Below, in pieces: positions 1-54,988 of a DNA stretch of 54,988 bases. The translations under genes and the position numbers were made by a program. Each line of letters starts with the position of its first letter. Within the stretch, counting starts at the first letter, position 1. The notes under the pieces were generated by a model. The model ran no database searches, was not told the DNA's origin, and saw only the letters and a program-made list of their open reading frames with translations. The stretch lies in the IMG/VR virus record IMGVR_UViG_3300034032_000011, positions 1-54,988 of that record. One strand, 5' to 3'. Origin of the DNA: a virus. Its lineage: Duplodnaviria > Caudoviricetes.

Positions 1-1834
1 GGAATACGACCCTGAGACTGACGGAGTTGACTTCCTAGGTAACGTGCTCGAGAGCGTTAACTTCGCAGACGCCTTCATCAAGAGCGGCATGACCCACACT
101 GGTCTCGCTGCCCTCGGACTCATGCTGGGTAGCCTCGCTGGAGGCGATGACGAAGAGCGTAAGCGTCGCCGTCGTGAAGAAGCTATCGGTGTCGGTCACA
201 TCTACGATCCTCGAGACCTGCGGAACGACATTCGCAATGCAGACGCTTTGTACTTCGAAGACTTCCCCTTCCTGGCACAGTTCTTCGGAGTCACTGACGA
301 GAACGGTACGCAGCGCGCTCCTGCTGAGCTCCACTGGACGCTCAAGCAGTTCATCTCTCCGCTCATGGGTATCTCCCGGTTCATGGATACAGGCAACTAC
401 AATGAGATCTTCTGGGGCTTCGAGGACGCTCTCGGCTCCATGCCGCTGATCAATGCCAACGGCTGGAACGACGCAGTCACGACGAGCAACGCTCTGTTCG
501 AGCAGTCTTACGATGCTGAACAGGCTGCTGAGAACGATGAGACTCTGCTCGCTACAGCCTCTGGACTATTCCTCGATGGCGTCTTCAACCTCGAGCGCAT
601 GCTCCTAGAGAACTCCTTCATCAACGGTCTCTACACCAGTGCAGACCGCTACGACCGTGATCCTTGGACTCTGGCAGACATCGACGCTGACGGTATCCTC
701 CAGCGAGACAACCTCAATGTACCGATGGAGACCACTGCTCTGAACGAGTACTTGAACGACGAGGGCAACGCTGCACTCGGTACTGAGGGTCGTGACCAGC
801 TCAGCGGGTTCCTTCGGTCCAAGAGCGAGCGACGCTTCACACTGGCGTTCTTCGGTAGCCTTGTGACCGGCTTCAACACTCAGAACTCCCTGTGGCGGTA
901 CGACATGGCTGCTCGTACCTACAGCATCGAGAAGCAGGGGCTCGAGCAGAACGAGGTAGACACCCTGCTACTGTCAGAGTGGAACGGAGCAGGTGAAGAG
1001 ATCCTTAACCTCGATGGGGTGGACGCTCTCCTGCGCTCCATCCACGCGGGTTACATCTCCAAGACCAGCCCGGTGCTCGAGAACATCTACCTGACTCAGG
1101 ATCAGCGGTATGCCGCAGCAGAGCGCTTCGAGGCTACGGTCATCCAGCAGTCGCTAGATGCAGGACTTACGCCTGAGGAAGCAGACGCTCGCTGGGACGA
1201 CATCATGTGGGGTCGGCCAGACCAGCCCTGGATCGTGCCGCTCTACGATGTTATCTTCTCCAAGGGCTCTCACGAGAACCAGATTCCCTACGACACTACG
1301 AGCACCTATCGTCAGCTCAACACGACCTGGGTCATCGGCCCAGACGGTAAGCCGTGGGCTACTGGTGTTACTCGCGGTGAGCTCAACAACTTCTGGGGCA
1401 TGGGCGCGCTCCAGCAGTTCAACGGTGCCGGTGGAGACGTTCTAGGCAACCTGACTCAGGACGGTCTGCTCAACTCGACCGACGAGACCGGCAACATCAA
1501 CACTGGAATGCGCAGTCTTGAGAAGGTGACGTCTTCCACCCTCAACCCCACTGATGAAGATATCATGGAACAGTTGAAGGACATTGCAGCCAAGATCCGT
1601 GAGGGTCTACAGGGCAAGTCCTACGGTAACGCTGGAGCAGGGTACCAGCGCTACAGCGGCGGCGGTGGTGGAAGCTACTCCGACATGCCGTTCATGCCGT
1701 TCCAGAATGACATGAAGTCGCCCTACATCGACAACGTTCCAGGCATCTACATCAACAACCCGAACATTCAGCGTGCGTACATTAGGCGTCAGCGCTTCTC
1801 AGCAGAACGAGGGAGAATCAACCAATGGCAGTAA
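1..1834 (+). CDS. C-terminal ~610 aa of the giant protein
   Basis: Frame is open from base 2 (EYDPETDGVDFLGNVLESV...) and in register with the ORF running off base 54988. The stop overlaps the portal start. Confidence 0.88.
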   Translation, partial: EYDPETDGVDFLGNVLESVNFADAFIKSGMTHTGLAALGLMLGSLAGGDDEERKRRRREEAIGVGHIYDPRDLRNDIRNADALYFEDFPFLAQFFGVTDENGTQRAPAELHWTLKQFISPLMGISRFMDTGNYNEIFWGFEDALGSMPLINANGWNDAVTTSNALFEQSYDAEQAAENDETLLATASGLFLDGVFNLERMLLENSFINGLYTSADRYDRDPWTLADIDADGILQRDNLNVPMETTALNEYLNDEGNAALGTEGRDQLSGFLRSKSERRFTLAFFGSLVTGFNTQNSLWRYDMAARTYSIEKQGLEQNEVDTLLLSEWNGAGEEILNLDGVDALLRSIHAGYISKTSPVLENIYLTQDQRYAAAERFEATVIQQSLDAGLTPEEADARWDDIMWGRPDQPWIVPLYDVIFSKGSHENQIPYDTTSTYRQLNTTWVIGPDGKPWATGVTRGELNNFWGMGALQQFNGAGGDVLGNLTQDGLLNSTDETGNINTGMRSLEKVTSSTLNPTDEDIMEQLKDIAAKIREGLQGKSYGNAGAGYQRYSGGGGGSYSDMPFMPFQNDMKSPYIDNVPGIYINNPNIQRAYIRRQRFSAERGRINQWQ

Positions 1835-40349: not shown

Positions 40350-40661
40350 TTACTTGTTGGTTAGGGCAGCGATGAGCTGCTCGAACTGCTTGTCATTGAG
40401 CTTGTGCTCGATGACGCTGTACGTCCGGATGATGCCATCGCCTGGATCCGCCTGTACTAGACTGATCTTAGGCACTGGCCCGGCCTGAGAACTAGGCTTG
40501 GCTCCACGAGTATCGTGAGGCAACCCATTGTTCTTCCTGTATGCGACACGACGCTTCTGCATCTGCGCATACGTGAGATGAGGCCAGCGAAGGAGCAGGT
40601 CTTCGATCGTGAGATCGTAGTCCTTGAATGCTTCTTCCATAGCCTCTTCGTCTGTAGCCAT
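40350..40661 (-). CDS. Hypothetical early protein
   Basis: GAAAGGA RBS, preceded by an AT-rich promoter box. Confidence 0.65.
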   Translation of the reverse strand: MATDEEAMEEAFKDYDLTIEDLLLRWPHLTYAQMQKRRVAYRKNNGLPHDTRGAKPSSQAGPVPKISLVQADPGDGIIRTYSVIEHKLNDKQFEQLIAALTNK

Positions 40662-40696
40662 TAGGATCCTTTCCTATTTCCTATTCTCTTATTACC

Positions 40697-40712
40697 TTAT
40701 ACTACCATAAAT
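40697..40712 (-). promoter_or_regulatory. Conserved AT-rich early promoter box ATTTATGGTAGTATAA, copy 1
   Basis: Exact 16-bp copy at 41613-41628. Both lie about 36 nt upstream of a leftward start codon. Confidence 0.65.
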
Positions 40713-40871
40713 AGTTATTTATTGGGTACAATAGCCATTGTACGACTACAGCCGTAGTCAAGTCTAGCCAGACTCGCTACAAGCCTGTGGCCAGATTGAA
40801 CTGTTCGTGAAAGAAAAAGTTCCAAGCCCTAGATACTAGGTCTCGGTGTCCATACGGACCGATGAGCGAAC

Positions 40872-40936
40872 GAGACTAGACTACGTGACTCTGCTGGACG
40901 CCGAAGGTGGCCAGCAGAGTCACGTAGTCTAGTCTC
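40872..40936. repeat. 26-bp perfect inverted repeat (hairpin/cruciform)
   Basis: GAGACTAGACTACGTGACTCTGCTGG-N13-CCAGCAGAGTCACGTAGTCTAGTCTC. Confidence 0.92.
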
Positions 40937-40942
40937 TACATT

Positions 40943-41237
40943 GGTGTATCAATGGTGTATCACGGTGTATCAAGCCCGTTGATACACCAGACCCCAATGA
41001 TTGCATGGGATTTTACCCCGGAATTTGGTGTATCAAGGTGTATCATAATACTCCTTGGAATGTACCGGGGAAGAGTGAAGGTAGAAAGTTACCTTGAGAA
41101 AGTGAGGGTAAAAAGAAAGGTTCACGGCGTATCATGATACACCTTGATACACTGATACACCACCAATGTGGCCATAGTTTACATGGTGTTGGTGTATCAA
41201 ACGTTGAATACGCCGTTGATACACCAGTTGATACACC
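40943..41237. repeat. GGTGTATCA/TGATACACC repeat array (iteron-like)
   Basis: About 11 exact 9-mers in both orientations plus variants in about 300 bp of non-coding DNA. Confidence 0.88.
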
Positions 41238-41314
41238 TGTTCTGGCCCTTGCAGTCCGCTGCTTATGCCCTCTGTTTCTCCTAACGGACTACACTCGGGG
41301 TCGCGACCTGAGAA

Positions 41315-41348
41315 GAACGGGACTAGCCTCTGAGAGCTAGCCCCGTTC
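41315..41348 (-). terminator. Terminator hairpin after the 41352 gene
   Basis: Minus strand GAACGGGGCTAGC...GCTAGTCCCGTTC followed by TTCT. Confidence 0.65.
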
Positions 41349-41351
41349 CCC

Positions 41352-41576
41352 CTATACCTTCATGATGATTGTTGCTCGCGCCGACTCGATGAACGAAACG
41401 AACACAGTGTCACTGGTCCGCTTCTGTTCCATCTCGGTGAGGATGAGCTCGAGCTCGTGACGAACGAGCTGTGCTGGCTGCTTGTCCAGGTCGTCTGCGA
41501 GCGACTGGAGTGCGCGACCAGCTGTGACGATAGCATCGATTGCATCGATGGTCTTACGAGCCTGATTGAGATCCAC
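41352..41576 (-). CDS. Small early protein
   Basis: TAAGGAGT RBS, GTG start, own promoter box and terminator. Confidence 0.7.
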   Translation of the reverse strand: MDLNQARKTIDAIDAIVTAGRALQSLADDLDKQPAQLVRHELELILTEMEQKRTSDTVFVSFIESARATIIMKV

Positions 41577-41612
41577 GAAATGACTCCTTAAAGATTAAGA
41601 TTACATTACTAA

Positions 41613-41628
41613 TTATACTACCATAAAT
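41613..41628 (-). promoter_or_regulatory. Conserved AT-rich early promoter box, copy 2
   Basis: Identical to 40697-40712; reads ...GTAGTATAAT on the minus strand. Confidence 0.65.
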
Positions 41629-41801
41629 GGTTTTTATTTTAATTAACTAGTTAGCCAACTAGTTTATTTTAATTGTATTATTTATTTGCATTAATCATTC
41701 TAGATTTGGGTTTCGCAACCGTTGGTTGCGCAAGCGCACAAAGCTAGAATAAACCTAGTTGGTCATTGAGTTATTTGTCCTTTGCATTTATTTATTATAT
41801 T

Positions 41802-41840
41802 AAAAGAAAAAACTAGTATCTATTAGATAGATACTAGTTT
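41802..41840 (-). terminator. Intrinsic terminator after the 41845 gene
   Basis: 14-bp perfect stem AAACTAGTATCTAT / ATAGATACTAGTTT followed by TTTCTTTT on the minus strand. Confidence 0.75.
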
Positions 41841-41844
41841 AGTC

Positions 41845-42240
41845 TTATTTAGCGGAGTCCTGGATGTCGTTGATGACTTCCATCTGGTTCTCCGAGAAGC
41901 GCTGAAGCTGCTTCTTGATGTTGCGAAGGTGCGTACGCTCGTCGATAAGATCCTGGAGATCTTCTTCTGCTGCTGTGACAGCCCACGAGTCGATTGCACC
42001 TGCGTTGTTAGATGCTACGACAGATGAGTAGGACTCACGTGCCGTAGCGATCTTGAGGTTGACTGCTTCGAGGCGAGAGCCTACAGCAGTTGCTTGCGCT
42101 GCGCGCTTGTCGGCCATGTCCATCGGGATGGAGAGCGTAACACCCATGACGGTTGCCGCTGTTGCCTTGTCCTCGGGAGAACGTAGCTGGTACTCGACCA
42201 TCCTGTTGATGGATGAGCTGATTGCTTCTAGTGCAGACAT
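41845..42240 (-). CDS. First leftward (early) gene, helical/coiled-coil protein
   Basis: TAAGGAGT RBS, flanked by AT-rich DNA. Confidence 0.75.
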   Translation of the reverse strand: MSALEAISSSINRMVEYQLRSPEDKATAATVMGVTLSIPMDMADKRAAQATAVGSRLEAVNLKIATARESYSSVVASNNAGAIDSWAVTAAEEDLQDLIDERTHLRNIKKQLQRFSENQMEVINDIQDSAK

Positions 42241-42625
42241 CGTTACTCCTTAGTTGCTTGATATGGTTACATTATAGTTACCAAAAAATATCTTGTTAAT
42301 TCAATTTGTTTACTGTTTAGTTACCCTATAGTTACTGTATATTGTCAGATATACATACTTATATATATACTATAGTAGGGGGGTATAGGTTGTTATTATT
42401 GTTATTATAGTATATCAAGGATCTGCTCCGATAAAATTTGCGCAATTGTGACTTGGACCTTACCCCGCATAGTGTCTTTCCCGGAAGCCAACCGGCATCG
42501 ATCCCAGCGGAAAGCACCTCCGCGCGAATCAGAACATTGTTACCGACAGCGTTACCGTACCCCGCGGACCCCCATGGATTCCTTCGCTACAGACCGCCTT
42601 TCCCCCGCGACAGGCCACTACTGGT

Positions 42626-42637
42626 TACAATTAGAGT
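42626..42637 (+). promoter_or_regulatory. Putative -10 element of the rightward operon (TACAATTAGAGT)
   Basis: Matches the capsid upstream 12-mer at 11 of 12 positions. Confidence 0.55.
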
Positions 42638-42670
42638 GGTGGCTCCCGCTGCCGCAATAAAGGAGGAATC

Positions 42671-43153
42671 ATGGGGAAAGACAAGCTGGTGTACAACACC
42701 GATGGGAACCTGGTACCCGCTTCCGGCAAGGTGGCGAGCGCTGAGGTCGAGTCGGACATTCTGGCAGAGCAGGAAGCTGCCCAGGAAGCTCGAGAGAAGC
42801 ACGCCGATGAGCAGGCCGAGGAAGCGCGAATCGCACTCGCCAAGGCTGCCGCCGACAACGCTCCGCAGGGAACGGAGGTAGACCCAACGCTGGGGGCAGA
42901 CGGTCGCCTTGCAGATCCCGGTCGTGCGATCGTCGCCGAGGACGCAGAGGCCATCGCGGCCAACGCAGGATCCACGATCCAGTCCACGCCGGAGGAGAAG
43001 GCAACGTCTTCGGAAGCTGTCGAGCAGCCTGCTGCAGGTAAGGAGGCACCGCCCGTCGCTGCCGCCACCAAGCAGCAGCCCGCAGCGGCCAAGAAGCCGA
43101 ACGCTGCTGCACGCCCGACCCCCGCTGCTCGCACCAAGCCCGCAGCCAAGTAG
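42671..43153 (+). CDS. Ala/Glu/Lys-rich low-complexity protein preceding the giant gene
   Basis: AAAGGAGG RBS, 160 aa. Confidence 0.75.
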   Translation: MGKDKLVYNTDGNLVPASGKVASAEVESDILAEQEAAQEAREKHADEQAEEARIALAKAAADNAPQGTEVDPTLGADGRLADPGRAIVAEDAEAIAANAGSTIQSTPEEKATSSEAVEQPAAGKEAPPVAAATKQQPAAAKKPNAAARPTPAARTKPAAK

Positions 43154-43187
43154 TACCGACCGCTCCTAACGAAGGCACAGAGACACA

Positions 43188-46100
43188 ATGTCAGACGCAC
43201 CCTCTTGGGAGCAGCCCAATGCCCAGCAGGGAGCAGCTTCCGTAGCTGCCCCTGCTGGGATGGCGCAGCCGTCCTGGGCGAAGGACAACGCACGACTGCC
43301 GTGGCAGACTGACGCCACGGAGCGCAATACCGCTGCCTTCGGGGGCCAGCGAGGATCCATTCGTAACGGATGGAACACAGACTTCTACACCAAGCTGTTC
43401 GACCAGAACAAGCAGAGCGTGGACGCGGGCATTGACCCCTACGCTCGTGACGACTTCACTGGAGTCGTGACCTACGACACCAAGATCAAGACCGTGTCCG
43501 GCCAGGATCGCGTCCTCAAGTTCGGTGACGTCTGGGAAGACGGCAAGCGAGTCGAGAACGTCTACGACTACGGCCAGGACGAGGGCAACGCGATTCTCTC
43601 AGCCCTGCAGCTCGGAGCGAAGGAGAAGCTCGAGCTCTTCCAGGACGCCGAGGGTGACCAAGACAAGATCTACAACGCACTGCTCGAGCGCGCCTCTTCC
43701 AACACTGCCGCTGCCGCTGCATACCAAGGCCAGCAGCAGTTCATCCAGGAGCGTGAGGCAATCGAGAAGGACTGGGGCGACTTTGCCCCGCTCGGTGTCT
43801 TCCTCGCTGGCGCTGGAGCCGGTGCTGCTACCGGTGCAGGTGCTGGTGGAGCGATCGGTCTCGCTGGTGGTCTCGCTGCTCTGCCAGCCGCTGGCATCGG
43901 TGCTATCGCTGGTACTGTCATCGGTGGCGTTGGCGCACTGCTCAACCAGGACGAGCTCATCGACAACTTCGCCGCTGCACAGGTGCAGGTAGAGCGGGCT
44001 CAGAATCTCAACAACCCTGGCCTCCAGCTCTCTGCAGGTCTCAGCGGCTACGGTGGAGCAGTAGCTTCCCTGGCTCAGCCGCTCACCAACCTTGGTGTCG
44101 GCCTCACTGAGGTTGCCAACGACTCAGTCGGTAACGACATCAGCAGCCGAGACGAAGCCTACGCTCAGGACAACCTCGTTCAAGAGGGGCTCCGATTCGG
44201 ACTGTCCTTCGCTGACGCCTTCGCACAGTTTGCAGGTGCTCCCGGTACTGCTTTGTACATGGCGACGATGGGAGCAGTCACTGCTGGTGGCGCTGTCGGC
44301 CTCTCGACAGGTATGCAGTGGGACGACAGGCTTCAGGAGTACAACCCCATCGCTGACTCCGGCTCTGCCGTCGAGGACGCCGGTCGCTGGGCCTCTGCCA
44401 TTGGCGCTGTCGGTATCGACGCCGTCCAGACGTTCATGCCTGTCGGTGTCCTCCGAGCAGCCGACCGTGTCGGCGGTGCTGCTGGAAGAGTGGGCGGCAA
44501 GACACCGATCGCGTTCGAGCAGCGCATTGTTCAGAAGGCCAACGACGGTGACCGTGTCGCTCTCATTCAGGCCAAGCTGTTGGGCCTCGAGACCGAGCGC
44601 ACCACCGTCATGAATGGTCGCACGTTCCTCAAGGAGGACGGTCAGGTCGTCGGCGTATCGCGACTCCCCAACGTCACCCTGCTGGCTCCCAGCGAGGCTA
44701 TCGGCTTCCTGTCGGCCCGAGCCGTGGCAATGTACAACCAGGTTCGCGGTGCTAGCCTAGGTGCCAGTGACCTGTACGCTGCCAGTCTCCGCCTTCGAGA
44801 GCTGCCACCCCTGTCTCAGGCGCTCGTCACCGGCTTCGGTGAAGGTTACGAGGAAGTGGCACAGTCCTTCCTCCAGAACTGGAGTCAGGGCTACAACCCC
44901 AGTCCGGAAGAGCTGGTTCGCTCTGGCCTCGGTGGCTTCATCGCCGGTGCTGGTATGTCGGCTGGTGCACAGGTCGGTCGCAACCCGAAGCTCGAGGGTC
45001 TCGGAGTAGTCAACTCCGTTCGTGCCATGACCGGCTCGCCGTTGCTGAGCGAGGAAGACTGGCTCGGTCTCAGCGCCGTTGAGCGACAGGCAGAGCGAGA
45101 CATCTCTCCTGCCATTCGCGCCACTGCTCAGCGAGCCCGTCAGGATCTCATCTCTGACATGGTGGACGTTACGTTCGGTGGAACGGTCATCCCCGAGATT
45201 CGCGTCGACGCAGCCGTTCGTGCTCGTGATGCTGCTCTCGAGCGCGCGCTCCCCGCCTCTGAGCGCACCTGGAAGCTGTCAGCCACCGAGAACCCGGCCT
45301 TCGATTCCAACGCTGTTCGCATCGAGCTCCAAGCATTCCTTCTGGCCTTCGACACTCACGCTCGCGTGTTCGAAGAGACAGGTCGTGGCGCCAGCGCTGC
45401 TGCCGTCCGTGCCCTGCTCGACTACACCAAGGTCATCGCAGCCCGAGTCCTGCAGAATCCTCTCACTGCCACGACAGACAAGACTACGTTCGAGATTGTG
45501 AGAGCAGATGGATCAACGATTCCGGTCGGTTTCAGCAGTATCGAAGCTGTCAACGTTCTCCTCCGCGATGCTTACGAGGGACGTGGAGTCCCAGCTGTAC
45601 CTGGAGCAACGGCTAGCTGGGACAACGAGGCTGCCAGACGCGGTATCGAGCCCGTCTTCAACCGCCAGCCAGCTGATTCCAACGGTAGCTGGGCAATGCT
45701 TCGGCCCGAGATCGACGCCAACGTCACCAGCGAGCGTGATCCCGGAGATCCCGACAAGACGTGGCGACTCAGCCATGCTGTCCTCAAGGGGCTTTCGGGA
45801 GACTTCGATGGAGACGGCGGAGCTCTCCGATCGCTACTCCGCCTCGAAGACGATGGAGCAGATAATGGCGAGGCTCGTCGCCGCCTCCGTCTAGGCCTCA
45901 ATCTGGTGTCTGGAGACACCATCATGGTGGACTCGTACGCCACCGAGATCCACAACTCCAACCTCATCATCCGTCACCCACTGCGCGACAAGCCAGGATT
46001 CGTGAAGAGCCGCCTTGACAAGGCTGTGGCCGAGGTAGTAGCGCTCCTGGAGCCAGCTGGTCGCATGCCAGCAGCTAAGCTGCGTCTCGAGGTACAGCGT

Positions 46101-49100
46101 AATCTCCGTGATGTGCTGCTCAAGGGTCACGACCCTGAGGCCAAGCAGCACTTCTGGAAGTGGCTCATCCGTGCCGACATGCTCGGTGCTGCCTCCGAGG
46201 CCACAGACTCTGCCGTCGTCTACAAGCTCAACGACGTCTGGGTACGCGCCCTTAGCGAGATCGGTACTCGCATCGCGATGGAGAATGGGGCGACGGCAGA
46301 GGCCTCCATTGCTGCAGCACAGGCTGCTGGTGACCCCAACGCGAAGAAGATCGTTGAGACCGCAGCCAAGATTCCTGCCAGCCAGGCTCGACGCAACGAC
46401 CCTCGACCTGCTGCTACGCTGGGTCAGACAGTCGCTCTCCAGACTCCTGGAAACGACGACGTTCGCAAGAAGCAGAAGCTCAACCAGTCGCCTCTCGCGA
46501 GCCAGACGCTCGACGGTGGAGCAATCGCTGGCCACCTTGAAGCTGCTCAGAGGTTCTACCGCATCCTGTCTAGCGGAACGACCCGCACTCAGCTCGACTC
46601 GACCACTCGCGTCGACGAGGTAGCAGCCTACGCTCGCGCCGGTCTCGAGAAGCTGCTCGTCGAGTGGAACGTGGAGCGTACCCAGTCGGGTGAGCTCCCG
46701 ATCGAGATGCATGATCTAGTCAACATCTCTCTACCGAACATTGATGGTGTTGAAGCTCTAGCAGGTCGCTTTAAGTTCTTCAACGAGAGTGACCCGAACG
46801 CTAGCATTGGCCAGCTGGCCCTTCGGTTCGCAGTCAACCACTACCGTGGTATCGACTCGCCGGTGCTCGAGGTCAACAACGGCGAGCTCCGCAACAAGTA
46901 CATCGCGATCGAGAAGAAGGGCATGAAGGACACCATCGTCGAGCTCTTCGGAGAGACGATGATGGACTCGCTCGTGGGCATGGAGCCCAGTTCTCGCCTC
47001 GGCTGGACGGGCCTCACACTCAACCAGGCGCTCGCAGAGTACACCAGTCTCGATCAGGCTGGTCGCAAGGCAAAGATCCAGCTGGCGAAGCGACTCCCGC
47101 AGTATGGCTCGACGCCGTCCACGGAGAAGCCGCTACCTGCCTCCGAGGTTGGCAACGTCTCTGCATTCCGAGTCTTCATGGACGCGATCGAGACCAAGGG
47201 CAACCTGTTCATCACGATGAGCGACTCCGGTCTCGCCTCGACTGAGACCGTTGCTGGAGGCAGCGACGCTGCGCTCATCGATGACCTGCAGAGCGCAGCC
47301 AAGTCCGTTCGCAAGTACGCCCTCGATGCCTCGCGCGCGCTCGGGGCTAACAAGGTGCGTGGAGACCTCCACGTTGGAGCCAACGACAAGCTCACCGTGG
47401 AGCAGGTCTCCCACCTGTTCGAGGTAGACCGCCAGTTCGGTAAGCGACTGGCTGGTCTCGTGCCTCCTGGTATCGCCCTCTCGGTGTTCACCGAGGTCAA
47501 CGGCGTGGCTACCGTCCCGGACTGGTTCTACGACTTCATCACAGAGTCGAACGAGCAGCTTGCGGCCTACAAGCTGTGGCGCGGTATCCTCATCATGCAG
47601 TTCGACGCCGTCGCTGGCGAGACGAACTCCATCTCCGACGACAGGCTCATTGCTCAGTACCAGGCAGTGACCTCCGCAGACCCCACGGGTCGTGCTGCTG
47701 CTAGGATCCAGTCGGCCCTGGCCGAACAGCAGTCGATCCGTGGCTTCCTCTCATGGTTCAACCTGAACATGAACGGTGCTAACCCGCCTCAGCTGGCGAT
47801 CCTGAGAGATCAGGTCACTCTCGATACCAGCTTTTCGCAGGGTGGCTGGCGTCGTACGGGTACCCAGCAGGAGTTCAAGGAGGCCATCCGCGCTATGCGC
47901 GACCAGGTGGCCCAGTCTGCTCGCACCCTCAACGCCACAGTCGAGCGTGCCAGCAAGGACGACACCACTTGGTACAAGATCCAGAATGGTGACATCGATA
48001 CTCGTCGACTGGTGGATAAGTCCATCGCCCTCAAGAAGAAGCTGCCTACCGGTACTGGCACCGGCGTTCTCAACAACGCCCTGCGTAGCCTGAACGTGGG
48101 CCTCGTGGGCGACGAGTCTGAGAAGGCTAAGGCTGCTCGAGGTACTGCTGGGATGGGCGCTGTCGCTGTGGCTCAGCAGAACACCTGGGGAACCCCTCGC
48201 GACCAGCTGCGAGCAGCGTGGACGAGCATCTCCGAGATGGATGCTCTCGCTCGGCCTGATCGCCTCCTGTACCCTTTCAAGTTCTGGACCCAGGACGGCG
48301 TGCCTGTCGAATGGCCAGGGCTGACCTTCGAGATCATCCAGGAGATGTCCTATGATCTTGCTCTTCGCCCCATCATCACCGCTGCCCTCGGCCCGACCGT
48401 CTTCGATCAGGCCAACCCTGACGAGCCTGTCTCGCTCGCTGCACTGACGAGTCAGTCGATCACTGACATCGTCACGGAGCCGCACGAGATCCGTAGGATC
48501 GTGAGCGGCGAGAGCTACGCCGACCGTTCTCGGTTCCTTTCTGCCGTCTCTGGCAAGGGCGTCGCTCAGGAAATCGTTGAGCTCGCTCACGGTATCTTCA
48601 TCGCGCGCACGAGCGGTGCCACCAGACCGCTGAACGCTGCAGAGTACGTCGAGTGGTCTGACGATGCGATGAACACTGCTGCACGCTGGCTGCGCCTCGC
48701 TAGTCAGGTGCCTGTTAGTGAGCGCTCCGGCGTTGCCGCTGAGCTCGCCAAGCTCGGTCCTCAGCCGCTGCTGGCCGACCCGACCAACGAGAGCCTGTCG
48801 AAAGAGGATCGAGCCGCTGCTCTGATCGTCCGTGAGCTCCTCGAGAACGCCAAGACTGAGGCTATTCTCAAGCTGTCCGGTAAGGAGCAGGTACAGGCGG
48901 GTCTCCGCTACCAGCGCATGATCGATCGCCTTACTGCCAACTCCAGTGCTCAGGCTCTCGTCACGAGCTACTCCATTCCGGAGAACCCTGCCCTCGTACA
49001 CGACGCCAAGATCCGCATCTGGCGCAAGGCGCAGTCTCTCGGCTTCTTCTGGTCGATGACCCAGGGTCCAGACGCTGAGCGTGCTAACGCCTTCTTGTCT

Positions 49101-52100
49101 CTCGTGCCCAAGGACGGTCAGCAGTACCCTGAGGACACCAACAACCCTGCAGAGACGGCCGCCAACTGGGACGCGCTCACCCGCTCGATCGTCATGTACG
49201 AGCTCGGTATCGGCACCGGACAGACCACCGTCTCTCCTGAAGCGCGTGCTACGATGTCAGTCTCTGACCCATCGTTCGCGATCTTCCACGGTGACTGGTC
49301 GTGGGTCTACGACTTCGCCAAGCCAAGCAACGGTCGCTACGACTTGTGGAATGCTGCCAACGAGGTCCAGGAAGCCCTCACAGGTGACACTCTCGCTGGA
49401 GACACTGGAGCGTCCCTCGTGGATGCGATCAAGCGAGACCTCTACGAGAACTCGCGTTACCCGCTGGGTGCCTACAACAGTACCTATGCTCAGCAGTTCC
49501 TCGTGGGTCGGGACAAGCTCACTCGTTCTGCCAGCGAGCCAGCCATCGAGATCGGTGGTTCTGGACCGCAGAAGAACATCACGCTCGACACAGCCAGCCG
49601 TTACACCTTCAAGCACCCTGACGAACTGGGAGTACAGCCTCGCAAGTACGTGTTCTCTAGTCGTGTACTCTACCCGGTCACGAGCAACGGCCAGCAGCGC
49701 GAGCTGTCCATGGAAGACCGCCTCGCTGAGATGGACTTCGGCAACGGTCAGTCTGACCACCTTGGTATCCTGCAGGGTCGCTTCGTCAAGTCCATCACCA
49801 TCACCAAGCCGAACGGTGTGGCTCTGGACTTCTCGACCTCCGCTCTGCAACCGGCTATCACGAGCAGTGTCTCCAAGCAGACTCGTGCTAGTGGACTCAA
49901 GGTAACGAGCCCTGACCAGTTGGCGCTGGCTCTCAAGCCCTACGCCACTCAGGATCTCACGATTGAGATCGAGCTCTACCACCCCGACGACAAGCCACTG
50001 GGTGAAGCCAACAACATCTACTTCGTCGGTACTGCTCGAGGTCGCGAGGCAGATGCCGGTCTGTCCCCGTTCTCCGCCGACCTGCAGAACGAGGGTGAGA
50101 CTCAGCAGCTGTCTCGCAAGGCTCTCGACGCGATGAAGAAGCACACTTCGGCTATCGGTATCCCGAGCTTGCCGGAGCGTGCAGACGTTCGTGCACTCGA
50201 AGACCCGACGAACATGCGTGCCACGATCGAATACAAGGTGGCTCAGTACATGCTGAGCGACACTGACATCACGATGATCGACGCCTCGGCAGAGAACAAG
50301 CTCCGCAAGGAGGTTCTCATGCAGTCGATCATTCGTGGCATCGACGAGACCGGTGCTGTACAGATCTTCTCGGCAGAAGAGATCATTGCTCACCAGAACA
50401 GTGGATCGCCCGAGCCGTACCCGATGCCGCTCCAGAACGTACAGTTCGAGACCATCCCTATTGACTTCCTTCGCTCCTTCCTCGGAGAGCAGGGCACCCA
50501 GGGCTCGACGGTCAACCTCGATCCTGAGCGGTTCAACGCCAGCATCCAGACCTGGGATGCCTACACTGGTCACTGGGACCGCGAGATGATCAAGACCCTC
50601 GCCCCTGGACTGCTCGACCCGACAACCCTGTCTCCCGACACCGTCAGCCTTGCTAAGATCATGGGCACCAGTCTCTTCGCCAAGACCGGTTTCCTGCGTC
50701 AGTCACACCCTCGCAAGATCGCCTCTGCCAGGGAGATCAAGGAGTACTACTCCATCCTGGACACTTGGAGCGCTGCTCGTCGTGTCGCTGGTGAGGAGGG
50801 GCGAGTCCGCGATAAGGGTACTCAGGACGCCCTCGCCGAGAACAGTGCTCGCAACGCAGACATCGTCGCTGAGTTCGATAACCAGCGCGGTGCTCGCACG
50901 ATCGTTCAGCTCAGCGAGCTCAAGATCTCTGGCGTTCCTGGAGTGTCCGACGAGGTACTGACCCGTACTCAGAACCTGGTACGTACGGCTCACGCCCAGG
51001 ACGCCGGTTCTGTAGCAATGTCCATCGGCGAGCGCAAGGAGCTCTGGCTCCTCAAGCCCGAGAGTGCTAGCGGCGGCGTGATGAAGGGTATTGTTCGCAG
51101 TCTGGCCGATCTTCGCTGGAACGCTGAGGAGCACCGTCAGGCTACTGGAGCCAACCCCATGCCTGGTGACGAGATCGCCGTCGACCCTGCAGACAACGGC
51201 GTCACTCAGAGCATGATCGAGTCGATCCTCGAGAGTGGCTACTCCGTAGCTCTGTATGGTCCCAGCACCAGCGCAGACGACATCGCTCTTACCAAGCGTG
51301 CTCTGGAGAACACCGGTCGCTTCGTTGAGGAGCACGGTCGGTGGTACCTCCGTGACCCTCGGGCTGGCTCCGTTACTGGAGTCGCTCGTGAGAGTAACCT
51401 GTTCGTAGTGGAGCGCCAGTCCACCAAGAAAGTTGTTGGCACGTTCATCACCAGCCGACTGCAGGGTGAGAACTCGCTGATTGTCGTCGACCCCAAGAAC
51501 ATGAAGGGTCGCGACATTGGCGTAGTCAAGACTCTCGTGCAGACGGGCCCGCACATCGGCTTCAACCGACCCAGCACTGCCGTTGGCATCTCTCGCATCC
51601 GCACCCTGCTCGACGAGTGGGCCGATCCTGCTTTGCGAGCAGTGTGGGAGGATCACCTGATCGCTCTGTCTGGTCCCAAGCTGGGGGCAGAGGGTCGCAT
51701 CGCTCTCATTGAGGCAATGGACCGTGCGATCGGTAACACCAACCGGAACACCGGACTGCCGATCACGAGGCAGGAAGACGCTGCAGCCGATAAGGTACGC
51801 CTGGGCGACTTCATCTTCCTGACTGACGCTCGTGGGCAGCTCATCATCACTCGCCACGGTCACAAGACCTTCGAGACCCAGGACAACCGCCGTACCCGCA
51901 ACGAGCAGCTGCGTACTCCACTGTTCGAGGGTGGCCCCGCAGGTCGTGTCGCTATCTACTTGCCCGAGGTCGACAACGATCCCACGTTCTTCGAGGGCGT
52001 CGTAGAGAGCTGGACCCCTGGCTCGCGAGCGCTGGAGGGCAATATGCGTGTTCCTCTCTCAGCGCTGTCGAGTAAGCTCATGATGGCAATGATCGGCATC

Positions 52101-54988
52101 AAGGGCTTCGCCAACACTCTCAAGAACGCCGGCTTCGATGTTACGAAGAAGCAGGTATCTGAGAAGATCCCTCTGCAGTTGCTCGTCTCTGAGGCCGACT
52201 ACGTGAGCAAGGAGGGCATGTCCCTCGACAACGCTCACGAGGCTATCAAGTGGCTCGGCTTCGATGCTACTGAGGCATACGCTATCGCCATGCTGGGGAT
52301 CACCCAGGAAGCATGGGACGAAGCCGTAGCCCAGCGAGAAGTAGGGAATGCCACAGCGTACCAGACGATTCGTGGAGCAGTCAAGGACTATCTCGCCGCC
52401 TACAGCCGTAGCTGGGCGTCGTCTGCTCTCACTGGGCTCGATGCTGCCGACTACATCTCTGCGCTCGCGGGTGACGTCAGTCACGTGTCTAGCGAGATCC
52501 AGGATATCATCAGCATGCTCCCCGCTGAGGCCCAGACGAAGCTGACTACAGTACTCGAGGGTGGCTTCTCGCCGGAGGCTCGCATTACCCTCGCTGCTCT
52601 TACCTACCTGTCTACTCCCAACGCTCAGGTGGATGCTATCCTGTCCACCGAGGGTGTCGAGGGTGTGACAGAAGAAGTCGTGTCCATGCCTCCACTGTTC
52701 ACCAACCTGTTCGTTCAGGCCACGAAGAACTCCGACCTGCAGGGTTGGATCGGTAAGCGAATCAACGATCGTCTGCCCTACGGTACAGACGCTCAGGGTC
52801 GTGCAGACGGATACGTCTGGAACCCGACCAGCGGTCGCACGACCATGTTCGTTCCCGGCCAGGAGCCGCTCGAGGGTCGCTACGGCTTCTACGAGCTCCA
52901 CGCCAACGGTGCAGACAACGGTGAGATCTTTGCACAGTCGTTCGAGCACTCCTCGAAGCAGACCGCTAGCCTCTCCATCCGCAACGTGGCGGTAGGCGCA
53001 CTGTATGGCGTGGACGCTGGCCACTCGCCCGACCTGCCCAAGCTCAAGCAGACGCTCAAGGGACGTACCTTCGATCCTTCCACAGAGGTCGGCCTCGACC
53101 AGATCTTCTCTGGGGCTACTGCAGCGTACATCAACTCGCTGGAGCCCAGCACCATGCTGTCCCCCGCAGAGGTTAAGTACGTGGAGACGGGTGCTGAGCT
53201 CGTGTCGGCCTTCACGCAGACTGCAGACCTCGAGGGTGATGAGCTCGGATGGACTGCTGCTCGCAAGGCTGAGGTCAAGAGCAACGCAGAGCGACTGTTC
53301 CAGCGCCACGGTCTCGACGCTCGTGATATCGATATGATCCACGGCTGGGTTCGTCGCTACCTGTGGCGTCCCAAGGAAGCTGGAGCAGATCCGAGTCAGG
53401 CCGAATACGGTCACATCTCCTACACAGCCTGGACCACAGCGTTCAAGGCTATCGAGAAGAACATGCTCAACGGTCGTTACCCGACCTGGCTTGCCAATGT
53501 CCCGGCCATGCACGCTGATGAAGTACGCTACTTCATCCTCGCCTTCCAGCGCTCGGGTGGAAAGAGCTTCATGCCTTCCGCTAAGCCGTGGGGTTCTAAG
53601 GCCGACAAGCGAGATGCCTCTCGCCGTGCCAAGGAGAATGACCCTCGTATGCTCAAGGGCGAGGCTCTCGAAGAGTACTTCTACAACGTGGCCATCGGTG
53701 AGATGATGGAGAGCACCGTCTCCAAGATCACTCAGCCCGCAGTAGATGGATTCCTTCACACCTACCAGGGGGTCTACTCCGACGGTTCGCTCATGGCTCT
53801 GTCCATCAGTGAAGAGGTACGGAACACCCTGCTGGATCCTGCGCTCAACAACATGGTGCTGTCGCTCGACAAGAACTACCGACAGTTCCTCAAGGTCATC
53901 CCAACCGACTCTGTCGTGGAGTCGCAGGTCACGGATATCTTCGGAGCAGGACTGCTCCAGGGTCGCTACGCCACCAGCTATCTCGGCAAGGACGCCCTCG
54001 TCGAGACCAAGGAGCGTCAGCTCCGTTGGCTCCGTGAGAAGAACATGTCCAACTCTTCCATGAAGGGTATCGATATCGCCAGCAGAGGTCACGAGCTCCG
54101 CTCGACCGCCGGTGTCACGACTGCACTCATGCGCATCTTCATCAACCTCCGACTGATCAACGGCATGGGTAACCCTCTCCTGATGCTGTCAGCTCCGGTA
54201 GAGACGTTCGCTCGCAACACCGTTGAGGACGCCAAGGCACTGCTGACAGGCCAGTCCACTAGTGCCGTGGGCATCAACATCTCCAAGATGCGTGCATCGT
54301 TCCGCGACTCTGTCATTGGCCAGTCTGCAGTAGTCTCTGCTCTCGCTCCTGAGGTTCAGATGACTCTCAGCACTGAGACTCTGCTCCACGCTCGTAACGT
54401 GATCAAGACCCTCGGTGACGACAAGGCTGTCTTCAAGCCCACGATCGCTGGCGACCTCGTTCCGCACATCGAGATTACTGGTAGCTGGGTAGAGCGTCAG
54501 TCTGCTCGTGCAGCCAAGTTCCTTGGTAAGTCGCAGGATCCCATGTGGGCTATCTCGACTCCGAAGATGGCAGAGCGCTTCGTGGGTGCCGTCATGCAGT
54601 ACTTCCAAACCGTGGGTACTGAGAACGGCTACACCCTTGACGACGCTCTCGAAATGGCTGCGACCTCGTTCACGACGTTCCGCAAGACGTTCCCGCAGGT
54701 GTATACCCTTGCTATCAACACAGTAGCGAACGTTCGTACCACCAAGGCTACGACAGTGAGCCTCGCCGCTGGCGCTGCCATTGACGCTCTGTCGACCAGC
54801 CGGTATGGTGGGGTGAATATCATCAGCAACCTGTCGCTCAAGATCCCGTTCATCTTCCAGAACTACGCTTTCAACGCCGCGACCAACATTATGGGTCTGC
54901 AGTTCCTGGACTCTGTGTTGGCTCTCGCTGCTCAGGGCAAGACGAGCGGTCGCACCTGGGGACAGGTCCAGTCCTTCCTCAATGGTCG
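43188..54988 (+). CDS. Giant (~4,544 aa) virion/ejection protein with a two-barrel RNA polymerase catalytic domain; 5' part, continues across the window end
   Basis: ATG at 43188 (MSDAPSWEQPNAQQG...). The ORF track lists no closed ORF in this frame, consistent with no stop before the window end. The last codon CG+G joins base 1 in the frame of ORF 44..1834. In-frame PVFNRQP at 45651 and GDFDGD at 45798-45815. Confidence 0.88.
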   Translation, partial: MSDAPSWEQPNAQQGAASVAAPAGMAQPSWAKDNARLPWQTDATERNTAAFGGQRGSIRNGWNTDFYTKLFDQNKQSVDAGIDPYARDDFTGVVTYDTKIKTVSGQDRVLKFGDVWEDGKRVENVYDYGQDEGNAILSALQLGAKEKLELFQDAEGDQDKIYNALLERASSNTAAAAAYQGQQQFIQEREAIEKDWGDFAPLGVFLAGAGAGAATGAGAGGAIGLAGGLAALPAAGIGAIAGTVIGGVGALLNQDELIDNFAAAQVQVERAQNLNNPGLQLSAGLSGYGGAVASLAQPLTNLGVGLTEVANDSVGNDISSRDEAYAQDNLVQEGLRFGLSFADAFAQFAGAPGTALYMATMGAVTAGGAVGLSTGMQWDDRLQEYNPIADSGSAVEDAGRWASAIGAVGIDAVQTFMPVGVLRAADRVGGAAGRVGGKTPIAFEQRIVQKANDGDRVALIQAKLLGLETERTTVMNGRTFLKEDGQVVGVSRLPNVTLLAPSEAIGFLSARAVAMYNQVRGASLGASDLYAASLRLRELPPLSQALVTGFGEGYEEVAQSFLQNWSQGYNPSPEELVRSGLGGFIAGAGMSAGAQVGRNPKLEGLGVVNSVRAMTGSPLLSEEDWLGLSAVERQAERDISPAIRATAQRARQDLISDMVDVTFGGTVIPEIRVDAAVRARDAALERALPASERTWKLSATENPAFDSNAVRIELQAFLLAFDTHARVFEETGRGASAAAVRALLDYTKVIAARVLQNPLTATTDKTTFEIVRADGSTIPVGFSSIEAVNVLLRDAYEGRGVPAVPGATASWDNEAARRGIEPVFNRQPADSNGSWAMLRPEIDANVTSERDPGDPDKTWRLSHAVLKGLSGDFDGDGGALRSLLRLEDDGADNGEARRRLRLGLNLVSGDTIMVDSYATEIHNSNLIIRHPLRDKPGFVKSRLDKAVAEVVALLEPAGRMPAAKLRLEVQRNLRDVLLKGHDPEAKQHFWKWLIRADMLGAASEATDSAVVYKLNDVWVRALSEIGTRIAMENGATAEASIAAAQAAGDPNAKKIVETAAKIPASQARRNDPRPAATLGQTVALQTPGNDDVRKKQKLNQSPLASQTLDGGAIAGHLEAAQRFYRILSSGTTRTQLDSTTRVDEVAAYARAGLEKLLVEWNVERTQSGELPIEMHDLVNISLPNIDGVEALAGRFKFFNESDPNASIGQLALRFAVNHYRGIDSPVLEVNNGELRNKYIAIEKKGMKDTIVELFGETMMDSLVGMEPSSRLGWTGLTLNQALAEYTSLDQAGRKAKIQLAKRLPQYGSTPSTEKPLPASEVGNVSAFRVFMDAIETKGNLFITMSDSGLASTETVAGGSDAALIDDLQSAAKSVRKYALDASRALGANKVRGDLHVGANDKLTVEQVSHLFEVDRQFGKRLAGLVPPGIALSVFTEVNGVATVPDWFYDFITESNEQLAAYKLWRGILIMQFDAVAGETNSISDDRLIAQYQAVTSADPTGRAAARIQSALAEQQSIRGFLSWFNLNMNGANPPQLAILRDQVTLDTSFSQGGWRRTGTQQEFKEAIRAMRDQVAQSARTLNATVERASKDDTTWYKIQNGDIDTRRLVDKSIALKKKLPTGTGTGVLNNALRSLNVGLVGDESEKAKAARGTAGMGAVAVAQQNTWGTPRDQLRAAWTSISEMDALARPDRLLYPFKFWTQDGVPVEWPGLTFEIIQEMSYDLALRPIITAALGPTVFDQANPDEPVSLAALTSQSITDIVTEPHEIRRIVSGESYADRSRFLSAVSGKGVAQEIVELAHGIFIARTSGATRPLNAAEYVEWSDDAMNTAARWLRLASQVPVSERSGVAAELAKLGPQPLLADPTNESLSKEDRAAALIVRELLENAKTEAILKLSGKEQVQAGLRYQRMIDRLTANSSAQALVTSYSIPENPALVHDAKIRIWRKAQSLGFFWSMTQGPDAERANAFLSLVPKDGQQYPEDTNNPAETAANWDALTRSIVMYELGIGTGQTTVSPEARATMSVSDPSFAIFHGDWSWVYDFAKPSNGRYDLWNAANEVQEALTGDTLAGDTGASLVDAIKRDLYENSRYPLGAYNSTYAQQFLVGRDKLTRSASEPAIEIGGSGPQKNITLDTASRYTFKHPDELGVQPRKYVFSSRVLYPVTSNGQQRELSMEDRLAEMDFGNGQSDHLGILQGRFVKSITITKPNGVALDFSTSALQPAITSSVSKQTRASGLKVTSPDQLALALKPYATQDLTIEIELYHPDDKPLGEANNIYFVGTARGREADAGLSPFSADLQNEGETQQLSRKALDAMKKHTSAIGIPSLPERADVRALEDPTNMRATIEYKVAQYMLSDTDITMIDASAENKLRKEVLMQSIIRGIDETGAVQIFSAEEIIAHQNSGSPEPYPMPLQNVQFETIPIDFLRSFLGEQGTQGSTVNLDPERFNASIQTWDAYTGHWDREMIKTLAPGLLDPTTLSPDTVSLAKIMGTSLFAKTGFLRQSHPRKIASAREIKEYYSILDTWSAARRVAGEEGRVRDKGTQDALAENSARNADIVAEFDNQRGARTIVQLSELKISGVPGVSDEVLTRTQNLVRTAHAQDAGSVAMSIGERKELWLLKPESASGGVMKGIVRSLADLRWNAEEHRQATGANPMPGDEIAVDPADNGVTQSMIESILESGYSVALYGPSTSADDIALTKRALENTGRFVEEHGRWYLRDPRAGSVTGVARESNLFVVERQSTKKVVGTFITSRLQGENSLIVVDPKNMKGRDIGVVKTLVQTGPHIGFNRPSTAVGISRIRTLLDEWADPALRAVWEDHLIALSGPKLGAEGRIALIEAMDRAIGNTNRNTGLPITRQEDAAADKVRLGDFIFLTDARGQLIITRHGHKTFETQDNRRTRNEQLRTPLFEGGPAGRVAIYLPEVDNDPTFFEGVVESWTPGSRALEGNMRVPLSALSSKLMMAMIGIKGFANTLKNAGFDVTKKQVSEKIPLQLLVSEADYVSKEGMSLDNAHEAIKWLGFDATEAYAIAMLGITQEAWDEAVAQREVGNATAYQTIRGAVKDYLAAYSRSWASSALTGLDAADYISALAGDVSHVSSEIQDIISMLPAEAQTKLTTVLEGGFSPEARITLAALTYLSTPNAQVDAILSTEGVEGVTEEVVSMPPLFTNLFVQATKNSDLQGWIGKRINDRLPYGTDAQGRADGYVWNPTSGRTTMFVPGQEPLEGRYGFYELHANGADNGEIFAQSFEHSSKQTASLSIRNVAVGALYGVDAGHSPDLPKLKQTLKGRTFDPSTEVGLDQIFSGATAAYINSLEPSTMLSPAEVKYVETGAELVSAFTQTADLEGDELGWTAARKAEVKSNAERLFQRHGLDARDIDMIHGWVRRYLWRPKEAGADPSQAEYGHISYTAWTTAFKAIEKNMLNGRYPTWLANVPAMHADEVRYFILAFQRSGGKSFMPSAKPWGSKADKRDASRRAKENDPRMLKGEALEEYFYNVAIGEMMESTVSKITQPAVDGFLHTYQGVYSDGSLMALSISEEVRNTLLDPALNNMVLSLDKNYRQFLKVIPTDSVVESQVTDIFGAGLLQGRYATSYLGKDALVETKERQLRWLREKNMSNSSMKGIDIASRGHELRSTAGVTTALMRIFINLRLINGMGNPLLMLSAPVETFARNTVEDAKALLTGQSTSAVGINISKMRASFRDSVIGQSAVVSALAPEVQMTLSTETLLHARNVIKTLGDDKAVFKPTIAGDLVPHIEITGSWVERQSARAAKFLGKSQDPMWAISTPKMAERFVGAVMQYFQTVGTENGYTLDDALEMAATSFTTFRKTFPQVYTLAINTVANVRTTKATTVSLAAGAAIDALSTSRYGGVNIISNLSLKIPFIFQNYAFNAATNIMGLQFLDSVLALAAQGKTSGRTWGQVQSFLNG

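Follow-up and report, generated by a model that had tools for sequence, protein, structure and literature searches.

We describe here a gene of 13,635 nt that occupies a quarter of the genome of an uncultured phage and whose product, as we consider likely, is an RNA polymerase (RNAP) carried in the virion. The sequence studied, called the window below, is the IMG/VR record IMGVR_UViG_3300034032_000011 at its whole length of 54,988 bp; the gene runs off the last base of this record and continues at the first one. Predicted structures of two parts of the encoded protein, which has 4,544 amino acids (aa) and is called the giant protein in this text, resemble the largest and the second-largest subunits of multisubunit RNAPs, and an aspartate-rich DxDGD block lies in the first of them. 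Our favored interpretation is thus that the giant protein is a single-chain two-barrel (multisubunit-RNAP-like) virion RNA polymerase which is ejected into the host. The gene itself is known from cultured phages; what is new here is the DxDGD block in a predicted beta-prime-like fold and, with weaker support, the beta-like region downstream of it.

Giant reading frame and its relatives

When open reading frames (ORFs) of the window were listed with open ends allowed, a 3'-open frame starting with ATG was found at 43188..54986 (plus strand, 3,933 aa), and a 5'-open frame at 2..1834 of the same strand (610 aa). The record ends with ...AAT GGT CG and begins with G GAA TAC GAC, so that the break splits a CGG codon (Arg 3934), across which both frames stay in phase. 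The first-pass annotation of this DNA had claimed just this connection, from the ATG at 43188 to base 1 read as CGG, and had derived from it a gene of 13,635 nt, 4,544 aa and a quarter of the genome. Both the raw sequence and the circularised translation agree with that claim to the last digit: the re-translated frame has 4,545 codons of which the sole stop is the last, there is no in-frame stop in 43188-54988, and the gene makes up 24.8% of the 54,988 bp. With a stop probability of 0.0336 per codon, as given by the base composition, the chance of an open run of 4,544 codons has a natural logarithm of about -155. Over 500 in-frame codons on each side of the junction, the GC content at third codon positions is 0.72 (before) and 0.71 (after), against 0.41-0.62 off frame. 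The same annotation had called the ORF hidden. This is correct in so far as the ORF is real and had been missed by the ORF track, because a default listing drops ORFs that run off an end and only shadow ORFs remained there; it does not hold as a claim of novelty, the gene family having been published.

It was nevertheless conceivable that the join is an artefact, the record ends not being adjacent and two separate genes standing in phase by accident. The record has no overlap of 8-399 nt between its ends and is classed by IMG/VR as linear (that is, without end repeats), at a CheckV completeness of 100%. Since two ends joined at random would be in phase in one case out of three, we compared relatives in which the junction is internal. 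One of them, the viral contig G001, is 100% complete and has direct terminal repeats. On its minus strand, G001 43254-45425 is homologous to the window segment 52788-54986 (47% identity), and the homologue of window 2-1831 lies directly after this first flank, at approximately G001 41397-43241 (61% identity); both flanks are parts of a single 4,526-aa frame of G001 with no stops. An alignment of five proteins, viewed over 90 columns around Arg 3934, has no gap at the junction codon against the Arthrobacter phage MissAmericana and the Microbacterium phage TinyTimothy; G001 has a 2-residue insertion at the junction and phage Akoni a 4-residue gap just before it. The flanks are contiguous in one frame in every aligned full-length homologue, the junction falls inside the best-conserved part of the giant protein with 0 residues missing relative to MissAmericana, and a length of 4,544 aa is within the family range of 4,400-4,900 aa. 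Since the flanks are contiguous in the G001 frame and the alignment is gapless at the junction, we conclude from sequence comparison that the join of the record ends is real and codon-exact, and we give an accidental fusion next to no credence.

A further claim, that the window is a closed circular genome, needs to be divided. The circular sequence map stands; the closed genome does not, and in our reading the window is an assembly which is complete and circularly permuted, and which does not speak for covalent closure of the packaged genome. Circularly permuted ends have been reported for three cultured relatives (PMC8281081, Table 1), and the virion DNA is therefore probably linear. The window record and G001 are both exactly 54,988 bp long, with giant proteins about 50% identical, which we treated as a coincidence. 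It needs to be mentioned that gene callers which treat contigs as linear can split such a quarter-genome gene into two partial "hypothetical proteins".

A tblastn search with the C-terminal 610 aa identified 58 phage records, 57 from Microbacterium phages and one from an Arthrobacter phage (MissAmericana). All 58 cover at least 80% of the query, and in each of the 25 rows listed the match lies under a giant gene which is followed by the portal gene. At E<=1e-3, an exhaustive HMMER search with the same 610 aa returned 264 representatives of sequence clusters, and the majority of the 150 listed among them measure 4,400-4,900 aa. In soil metagenomes the family has more than 260 such clusters. No match was obtained when the ORF was compared by megablast with 50,697 phage records, nor in a viral-contig search with window 52788-54986 as a single-sequence query. 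Over its full length the window protein is collinear with four orthologues (24-50% identity, 4,060-4,465 aligned positions), the closest relative being the metagenomic G001 at 50% identity. The orthologues of Cluster EK (Akoni gp31, TinyTimothy gp28, TicTac gp33), of the singleton Burro (gp27) and of MissAmericana (gp30) share its general plan: each is one ORF of more than 13 kb, taking about 25% of a genome of about 54 kb, it lies in the same place directly upstream of the portal gene in a rightward structural block, and the homology is collinear over the full length. The difference is one of identity, which reaches 39-44% in the C-terminal domain and 24-30% over 4,094-4,133 aligned positions in the whole proteins of MissAmericana, Akoni and TinyTimothy. 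On the strength of these comparisons, the giant gene of the window is an orthologue of the giant virion-protein gene of Cluster EK, Burro and MissAmericana, and the window probably represents a podovirus related to the Microbacterium Cluster EK phages (Eekayvirinae) and to Arthrobacter phage MissAmericana. The gene family is not new; given its low identity to Akoni, TinyTimothy and MissAmericana, the window is a rather distant new member from a separate uncultured lineage.

This giant gene has counted since 2020 as the largest of any actinobacteriophage. Jacobs-Sera et al. 2020 (PMC7302621) found nothing in Cluster EK and Burro more striking than this gene of more than 13 kbp with more than 4,400 residues, highly divergent and unclear in its role. 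According to the same paper, the giant protein has no similarity to, or motifs shared with, the N4 virion RNA polymerases. The announcement of Akoni, Ashton and Truong lists the gene as coding for a protein of unknown function (PMC8281081), and the TicTac paper of March 2026 states that its function "remains elusive" (PMC13069448). No published RNAP assignment for these Microbacterium and Arthrobacter phages was found in the literature searched. The main texts of the P23-45 paper (PMC10770324) and of the crAss gp66 preprint do not contain the words Microbacterium, Actinobacteri or Arthrobacter; the supplements, with 23 RNAP family alignments, could list the family.

RNA polymerase-like modules in the predicted structure

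Structure prediction in windows, which the first-pass annotation had suggested, was performed for aa 361-1360 and aa 2561-3360, and these two regions yielded an RNAP beta-prime-like and a probable RNAP beta-like fold, respectively. The first region was folded from a 40-row alignment and no templates, with a mean predicted local distance difference test score (pLDDT) of 71.6 and a predicted template modelling score (pTM) of 0.40. When this model was compared by Foldseek with 350,542 PDB chains, all 49 matches listed were largest RNAP subunits (E 0.0056-0.033). VIA-align, a method independent of Foldseek whose caution line lies at Z 8, gave the same answer in a wide search of 48,161 representative chains: the top eight were again largest RNAP subunits, namely those of RNA polymerases (Pol) I, IV and V, of vaccinia virus, an archaeal one, and those of Pol III, African swine fever virus (ASFV) and phage AR9, with Z of 10.4-7.8 and 162-248 residues aligned. 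They were followed by minimal and designed double-psi barrels, by phiKZ beta-prime (Z 6.8) and by P23-45 gp96 (Z 6.3). A second look with VIA gave Z>=8 for 395 of 980 chains and values up to 11.6, the latter against Thermus beta-prime 621-948 (about 240 residues, root mean square deviation about 5 Å). The matched part corresponds to model residues ~323-700, which are residues ~683-1060 of the protein, and a few of the second-look alignments extend to model residue ~735. In BFVD the orthologues from Burro, Truong and TinyTimothy came first (E 5e-24 to 2e-10), with the Burro model of the first ~1,500 residues matching at E 5e-24, and were followed by high-probability viral RNAP subunits and baculovirus LEF-9. 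We consider the presence of a beta-prime-type active-site module in the giant protein to be well supported by these predicted structures.

The sequence of this module points to the same place. Residues D872, D874, G875 and D876 do not vary among 11 full-length sequences (the window protein and ten homologues of 20-47% identity), in which invariant columns are few. The active-site consensus is SHAILKxxxGDFDGDKxR, preceded by RDPxDxxGSxQxLxPxV, and the surrounding R-x-P...G-S-x-Q block is either invariant or at least 90% conserved. Among 121 representatives that match the region (clustered at 50% identity), 119 have D-x-D-G-D, the x being F in 62, Y in 33, H in 16, N in 5, and W, R or T in one each. 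Fixed Asp and Gly residues around a free middle position are the pattern expected for a metal-binding triad under selection, and we take DFDGD as a putative site of this type. It is the sole DxDGD among all six-frame ORFs of at least 100 aa in the window, where about 0.1 would be expected by composition. A profile of the 11 full-length sequences, compared with PDB, found as its top three matches phiKZ gp55 beta-prime (7ogp_A, E 0.0059) and the phage beta-prime chains 7s01_d and 7s00_d (E about 0.1); five further beta-prime/gamma chains match the same profile positions, so that RNAP accounts for 8 of the 21 rows. With a regional profile of 18 sequences the same three chains, 7ogp_A, 7s01_d and 7s00_d, were the top three of six rows, at E 0.0018, 0.038 and 0.041. 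The alignments pair RdPt..GS.q and LkalsgDfDGDkl of the profile with RNPTLQRGSTQ and LKAPNADFDGDQL of these chains, and they fall exactly on the catalytic barrel and its NADFDGD loop.

The beta-like region lies about 1,700 residues downstream of the beta-prime-like module. Its model (aa 2561-3360) was built from 29 rows and has a pLDDT of 70.5, rising to 80-95 in the core, and a pTM of 0.55. Here, too, the Foldseek matches in PDB were uniform: all 50 listed are second-largest RNAP subunits (bacterial beta, Pol I A135), with a best E of 5.1e-4 and two matches at E<=1e-3. Second-largest subunits took 48 of 50 rows in the second look with VIA (Z 5.0-6.1), and the same part was matched each time, Rpb2 ~755-1099 or E. 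coli beta ~793-1239. The wide VIA search contained ASFV subunit 2 (Z 5.4), Pol IV subunit 2 (5.1), vaccinia Rpo132 (4.8) and the isolated beta-flap (4.7 and 4.5). In the sequence, a second conserved block, RHGHK, lies in this region and is followed by the invariant residues K2963, K2972 and K3008. We regard the beta-like module as probable on the basis of the model, and the occurrence of both halves of the same enzyme in one protein seems hard to ascribe to chance.

Several observations weigh against such an assignment. The beta-prime-like model has no Foldseek match at E<=1e-3, and the E-values of the PDB profile searches are modest, being 0.0018 at best. Pfam, PHROGs and NCBIfam gave 0 matches on either ORF piece; the Pfam families PF00562 (beta) and PF00623 (beta-prime) gave 0 matches on the window at E<=10, whereas 14 of 14 control genomes matched, and no Pfam RNAP family was matched by any of 18 relatives at E<=1. 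The beta-like region stays below the caution line of VIA with its Z of 5-6, and the top rows of the wide VIA search are small IF3-C/SepF-like domains. The regional sequence profile of aa 2561-3360 matches no beta chain in PDB, and hhalign of the region against 80 gamma-proteobacterial beta sequences gave a probability of less than 1%, which is a weak test because the profile is narrow (effective number of sequences 1.8). The Lys of RHGxK is not conserved family-wide, 67 of 122 representatives being without [YFWLMH]RxGx[KR]. Furthermore, the solved single-chain two-barrel RNAPs have the beta-like barrel before the beta-prime-like one (PMC10770324), an order that is reversed here with ~1,700 residues in between, and hhalign to P23-45 gp96 (327-1124) aligned the DFDGD stretch only, at a probability of 3.7%. 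Finally, association with the virion comes from one band in sodium dodecyl sulfate-polyacrylamide gel electrophoresis of one distant relative, Burro (PMC7302621).

Other searches were mostly silent. Phmmer of both pieces against the PDB sequences gave nothing informative, a relaxed Pfam scan of two sub-regions gave PASTA only (E 0.17), and in the ESM Atlas the first matches of the two halves scored 0.85 and 0.88, under the 0.9 line, and were mostly unnamed viral clusters. We also considered that the invariant blocks LAPSE and FGEGYEE (aa 501-556) might belong to an upstream beta-type barrel, guessed at aa 470-560. No support for this idea was found: hhalign of aa 420-620 against the 80 gamma-proteobacterial beta sequences gave 0.2% probability, and fold searches matched aa 539-598 to generic helical hairpins only. 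Just before the beta-like module there is a small alpha/beta domain (aa ~2658-2728; 51159-51371, plus strand) similar to IF3 C-terminal, SepF and Alba domains (Z 5.0-6.3, 65-72 residues aligned). Near it, at the N-terminal edge of aa 2561-3360, the regional profile matches a MoeA/CNX1 stretch at E 0.005.

Proposed function of the giant protein and its alternatives

The proposed enzyme would be built of an N-terminal region with a hydrophobic segment, the beta-prime-like module with its DFDGD metal site, the beta-like module and a conserved C-terminal domain. It would be made late, from the structural operon, and packaged in the head next to the portal. Possibly after cleavage, it would then be ejected with the DNA through the short tail and would transcribe the first phage genes, independent of the host RNA polymerase. 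The features that lead us to a packaged and ejected polymerase are the RNAP-like modules, the avoidance of Cys, the overlap with the portal gene and a protein band in Burro virions. This band, of about 250 kDa, is larger than any other predicted product of Burro and was attributed to the giant protein or a processed part of it (PMC7302621). Catalytic activity, packaging in this phage, cleavage, ejection, promoter choice and the role in early transcription are what we infer for the window protein.

The composition and the termini of the protein add to this picture. Cys is absent from its 4,544 residues, compared with 57 Cys in 9,835 residues of 24 other window ORFs (11 in the 6,418 residues of structural ORFs), and 105 full-length homologues contain 18 Cys in 481,588 residues. 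A hydrophobic Gly/Ala-rich segment is present at aa ~199-255 in all five aligned orthologues. The C-terminal domain (aa ~3900-4544; 54888-54988 and 1..1834) is the best conserved part, with 0.41-0.61 against 0.2-0.37 elsewhere. Its end (1645-1831, plus strand) carries a poly-Gly run and then a basic tail ending in RGRLxQW-Q, which is near-invariant (at least 90% in 22 sequences) and could be a packaging, portal-binding or DNA-binding signal. A 22-row profile of the C-terminal domain matched in PDB Gly-rich low-complexity sequences and a portal chain at E 0.18, which we did not trust. The first-pass annotation had seen in the gene product a polyvalent ejection protein. Ejection is compatible with our results, and the content now appears more specific, as RNAP beta-prime-like and beta-like modules are predicted; polyvalent in the sense of LPD domains is not supported, as 0 Pfam families, LPD or other, were found in the window protein at E<=0.01. 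An LPD14 match occurs in 1 of 18 relatives (E 0.0023), and Atlas neighbours with LPD22/38/39 in 15-28% of their members have scores of 0.77-0.85, below the 0.9 line.

On one hand, the giant protein might be an internal or ejection scaffold in which the RNAP-like modules are catalytically dead relics; its main task would be to give a phage whose tail is shorter than 10 nm a conduit across the thick wall of a Gram-positive host. The conserved Gly/Ala-rich hydrophobic segment, the near-total avoidance of Cys and the position next to the portal gene would all suit this role, as would the ~1,900 residues (aa 1-680 and 3245-4544) that showed no polymerase likeness in the searches made, and some low-probability BFVD rows that are tape-measure or "protein inside capsid" proteins. 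A dead relic, however, would not keep three Asp and a Gly in 119 of 121 representatives around a free middle residue, nor an R-x-P...G-S-x-Q block of comparable conservation. Moreover, the two roles do not exclude each other, since P23-45 gp96 is both a conduit and a polymerase (PMC10770324), and we find a scaffold with dead modules unlikely. On the other hand, the protein might be an active RNAP that is never packaged and serves middle or late transcription, like the non-virion RNAPs of phiKZ and AR9 and P23-45 gp64. It is true that the best sequence-profile matches are non-virion beta-prime subunits of jumbo phages. Such an enzyme would need prior transcription by something else, and the late-operon position does not fit it: the gene belongs to the rightward structural operon and overlaps the portal gene, and the ~250-kDa virion protein of Burro was attributed to its orthologue (PMC7302621). 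We therefore see only a slight chance for this alternative.

The GenBank annotation of MissAmericana (PQ184795) implies yet another function, that of a tail tape measure protein. The size, similar to that of the 5,002-aa P23-45 tape measure protein, and the hydrophobic Gly-rich segments could be cited in its favor together with the label. The gene, however, lies upstream of the portal gene and not between tail genes, Pfam and PHROGs contain no such family for the giant protein, self-blastp of it revealed no internal repeats, and the tails of the cultured relatives are shorter than 10 nm (PMC8281081). A tape measure function thus seems to us extremely improbable, and as the gene precedes the portal gene and the relatives are podoviruses, the label "tape measure protein" on MissAmericana gene 30 is probably a misannotation.

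The preferred reading of the giant protein, a virion polymerase, can be compared with several known systems. The phiKZ virion RNAP is packaged, ejected and transcribes the first phage genes, and N4 gp50 is a T7-like single-subunit enzyme. No N4-like or T7-like RNAP family was found in PHROGs or Pfam, nor among the fold matches of the two folded regions. The likeness to N4 gp50 and to gp66 of phi14:2, a crAss-like phage, lies in the proposed role, that of a very large polymerase in a podovirus head which is ejected to start transcription (PMC13434306; bioRxiv 10.1101/2020.03.07.982082). The crAss gp66 protein differs in belonging to a QDE-1-like clade; it is not among the matches listed here and may nevertheless be related. 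Likeness to gp96 of Thermus phage P23-45 (PDB 8h2m) is more detailed. This protein is a tape-measure-fused virion two-barrel RNAP, for which passage through the tail and transcription of the first genes were proposed (PMC10770324), and it is likewise a giant virion protein (5,002 aa) with hydrophobic segments and with DFDGD at 779-783, compared to 872-876 here. Its structure (8h2m_A) matched the beta-prime-like model at Z 6.3 over 99 residues. In contrast to the giant protein, gp96 is a true tape measure protein, from a siphovirus whose tail measures 800 nm, and both of its barrels lie within 327-1124, in the order B then A (PMC10770324). The fold predicted for the giant protein is nearer to cellular and jumbo-phage beta-prime/beta than to the QDE-1/gp66/gp96 group. 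Non-virion RNAPs of jumbo phages (phiKZ 7ogp, AR9 7s00) gave the best profile matches, with structural Z of 6.8 (phiKZ) and 7.8 (AR9) on the beta-prime catalytic barrel; they differ in being composed of several split beta/beta-prime polypeptides encoded by genomes of more than 200 kb, whereas in the window both proposed halves share one chain of 4,544 aa in a 55-kb podovirus.

Genome context and meaning of the finding

The coordinates of the giant gene, its predicted modules and the neighbouring genes are collected in Table 1. The statement of the first-pass annotation that the giant gene sits directly upstream of the portal gene is borne out, as its stop overlaps by 10 nt the start of a gene which is annotated as portal in the relatives; our own library scans of this homologue gave a weak PHROG match only. 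Its second statement on the context, that there is no tape-measure gene, also stands, for a scan of 16 plus-strand ORFs revealed no tape-measure family and the cultured relatives are podoviruses by electron microscopy (PMC8281081; PMC13069448; PMC7302621), with the podovirus morphology seen for Akoni and TicTac (PMC8281081; PMC13069448). No other RNA polymerase turned up in general scans of the window ORFs.

Table 1. Position of the giant gene, its predicted parts and other genes of the window, with the giant genes annotated in three cultured relatives
Feature	Position	Strand	Remarks
Giant ORF, 5' part	43188..54988	+	aa 1-3933 and first two bases (CG) of codon 3934; N-terminus aligns with homologues
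Giant ORF, 3' part	1..1834	+	base 1 completes CGG (Arg 3934), then aa 3935-4544; TAA at 1832-1834
Gly/Ala-rich hydrophobic segment (aa ~219-252)	43842..43943	+	Kyte-Doolittle 19-residue windows >1.5
Predicted beta-prime-like active-site module (aa ~683-1060)	45234..46367	+	contains double-psi beta-barrel; structure and phage beta-prime profile matches
DFDGD, putative Mg-binding aspartate triad (D872, D874, D876)	45801..45815	+	
Probable beta-like module (aa ~2737-3244)	51396..52919	+	hybrid-binding/wall (flap) part of second-largest RNAP subunits; predicted structure
RHGHK block	51852..51866	+	R2889 and G2891 invariant, H2890 at least 90% conserved (in 11 and in 15 sequences)
Portal homologue, 674 aa	1825..3849	+	homologues annotated portal; ATG overlaps giant gene end (ATGGCAGTAA)
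553-aa gene	plus-strand structural block	+	position of MissAmericana capsid gene
FN3-bearing minor tail proteins	plus-strand structural block	+	
Amidase-like protein	plus-strand structural block	+	
Large terminase	21702-23210	+	
Family A DNA polymerase, primase, helicase, PD-(D/E)XK exonuclease		-	
MissAmericana gene 30, 13,305 nt	L004 4607-17911		GenBank label "tape measure protein" (PQ184795)
Akoni gene 31, 13,464 nt			annotated giant gene
TinyTimothy gene 28, 13,470 nt			annotated giant gene

Two further parts of the window deserve mention. In a minor-tail-like protein of 567 aa (6920-8623, plus strand), two FN3 domains are accompanied by the N-terminal domain of a purple acid phosphatase (Pfam E 1e-19 and 7e-14), and putative purple acid phosphatase genes were announced in 2026 in EK1 phages (PMC13560708). 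The second part, 40690-41850, is a divergent region of low GC content (48%) between the leftward early genes and the giant gene. A GGTGTATCA/TGATACACC unit is repeated there at least 8 times, in either orientation (40938-41240); the region further includes a 31-nt hairpin, 94% complementary (40872-40936), and the exact 15-mer TATACTACCATAAAT, which occurs only at 40698 and 41614, in each case 36-37 nt upstream of where a leftward ORF starts (40350..40661 and 41352..41576). The repeat unit, the hairpin and the 15-mer might serve as origin, operators or early promoters. Sites resembling sigma-70 promoters numbered 6 in 40300-43250 against 2.8 +/- 1.7 expected, which is not convincing.

How much of the giant protein would belong to the polymerase is a more speculative matter. 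The span from the start of the beta-prime-like module to the end of the beta-like one is about 2,600 residues, and the summed length of bacterial beta and beta-prime is close to this value. One might imagine that the central ~2,700 residues (aa ~600-3300) are a complete RNAP core of the cellular type, about as long as bacterial beta plus beta-prime, with the beta-prime and beta parts fused in reverse order. The protein would be carried in a podovirus head of ~60 nm. Free of Cys, and maybe in an unfolded or cleaved state, it would be threaded into a Gram-positive cell by way of a very short tail, with the N- and C-terminal flanking domains acting as a conduit of membrane and wall and as a portal anchor. 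We put this forward tentatively and hold it to be rather doubtful; if true, it would be the largest single-chain RNA polymerase known.

As to the family as a whole, an ejected two-barrel RNAP with a defined Asp triad is a specific and testable function for a giant gene of phages that are already in culture. If this proposal is true, these phages would provide the fifth independently organised case of a virion RNAP, N4, the crAss-like phages, phiKZ and P23-45 being the other four. Actinobacterial phages would gain their first member of this class, and a beta-prime-like half followed by a beta-like half in one chain would be without precedent. This would have a bearing on the frequency with which the transcription enzyme of cells was taken up and remodelled by phages.

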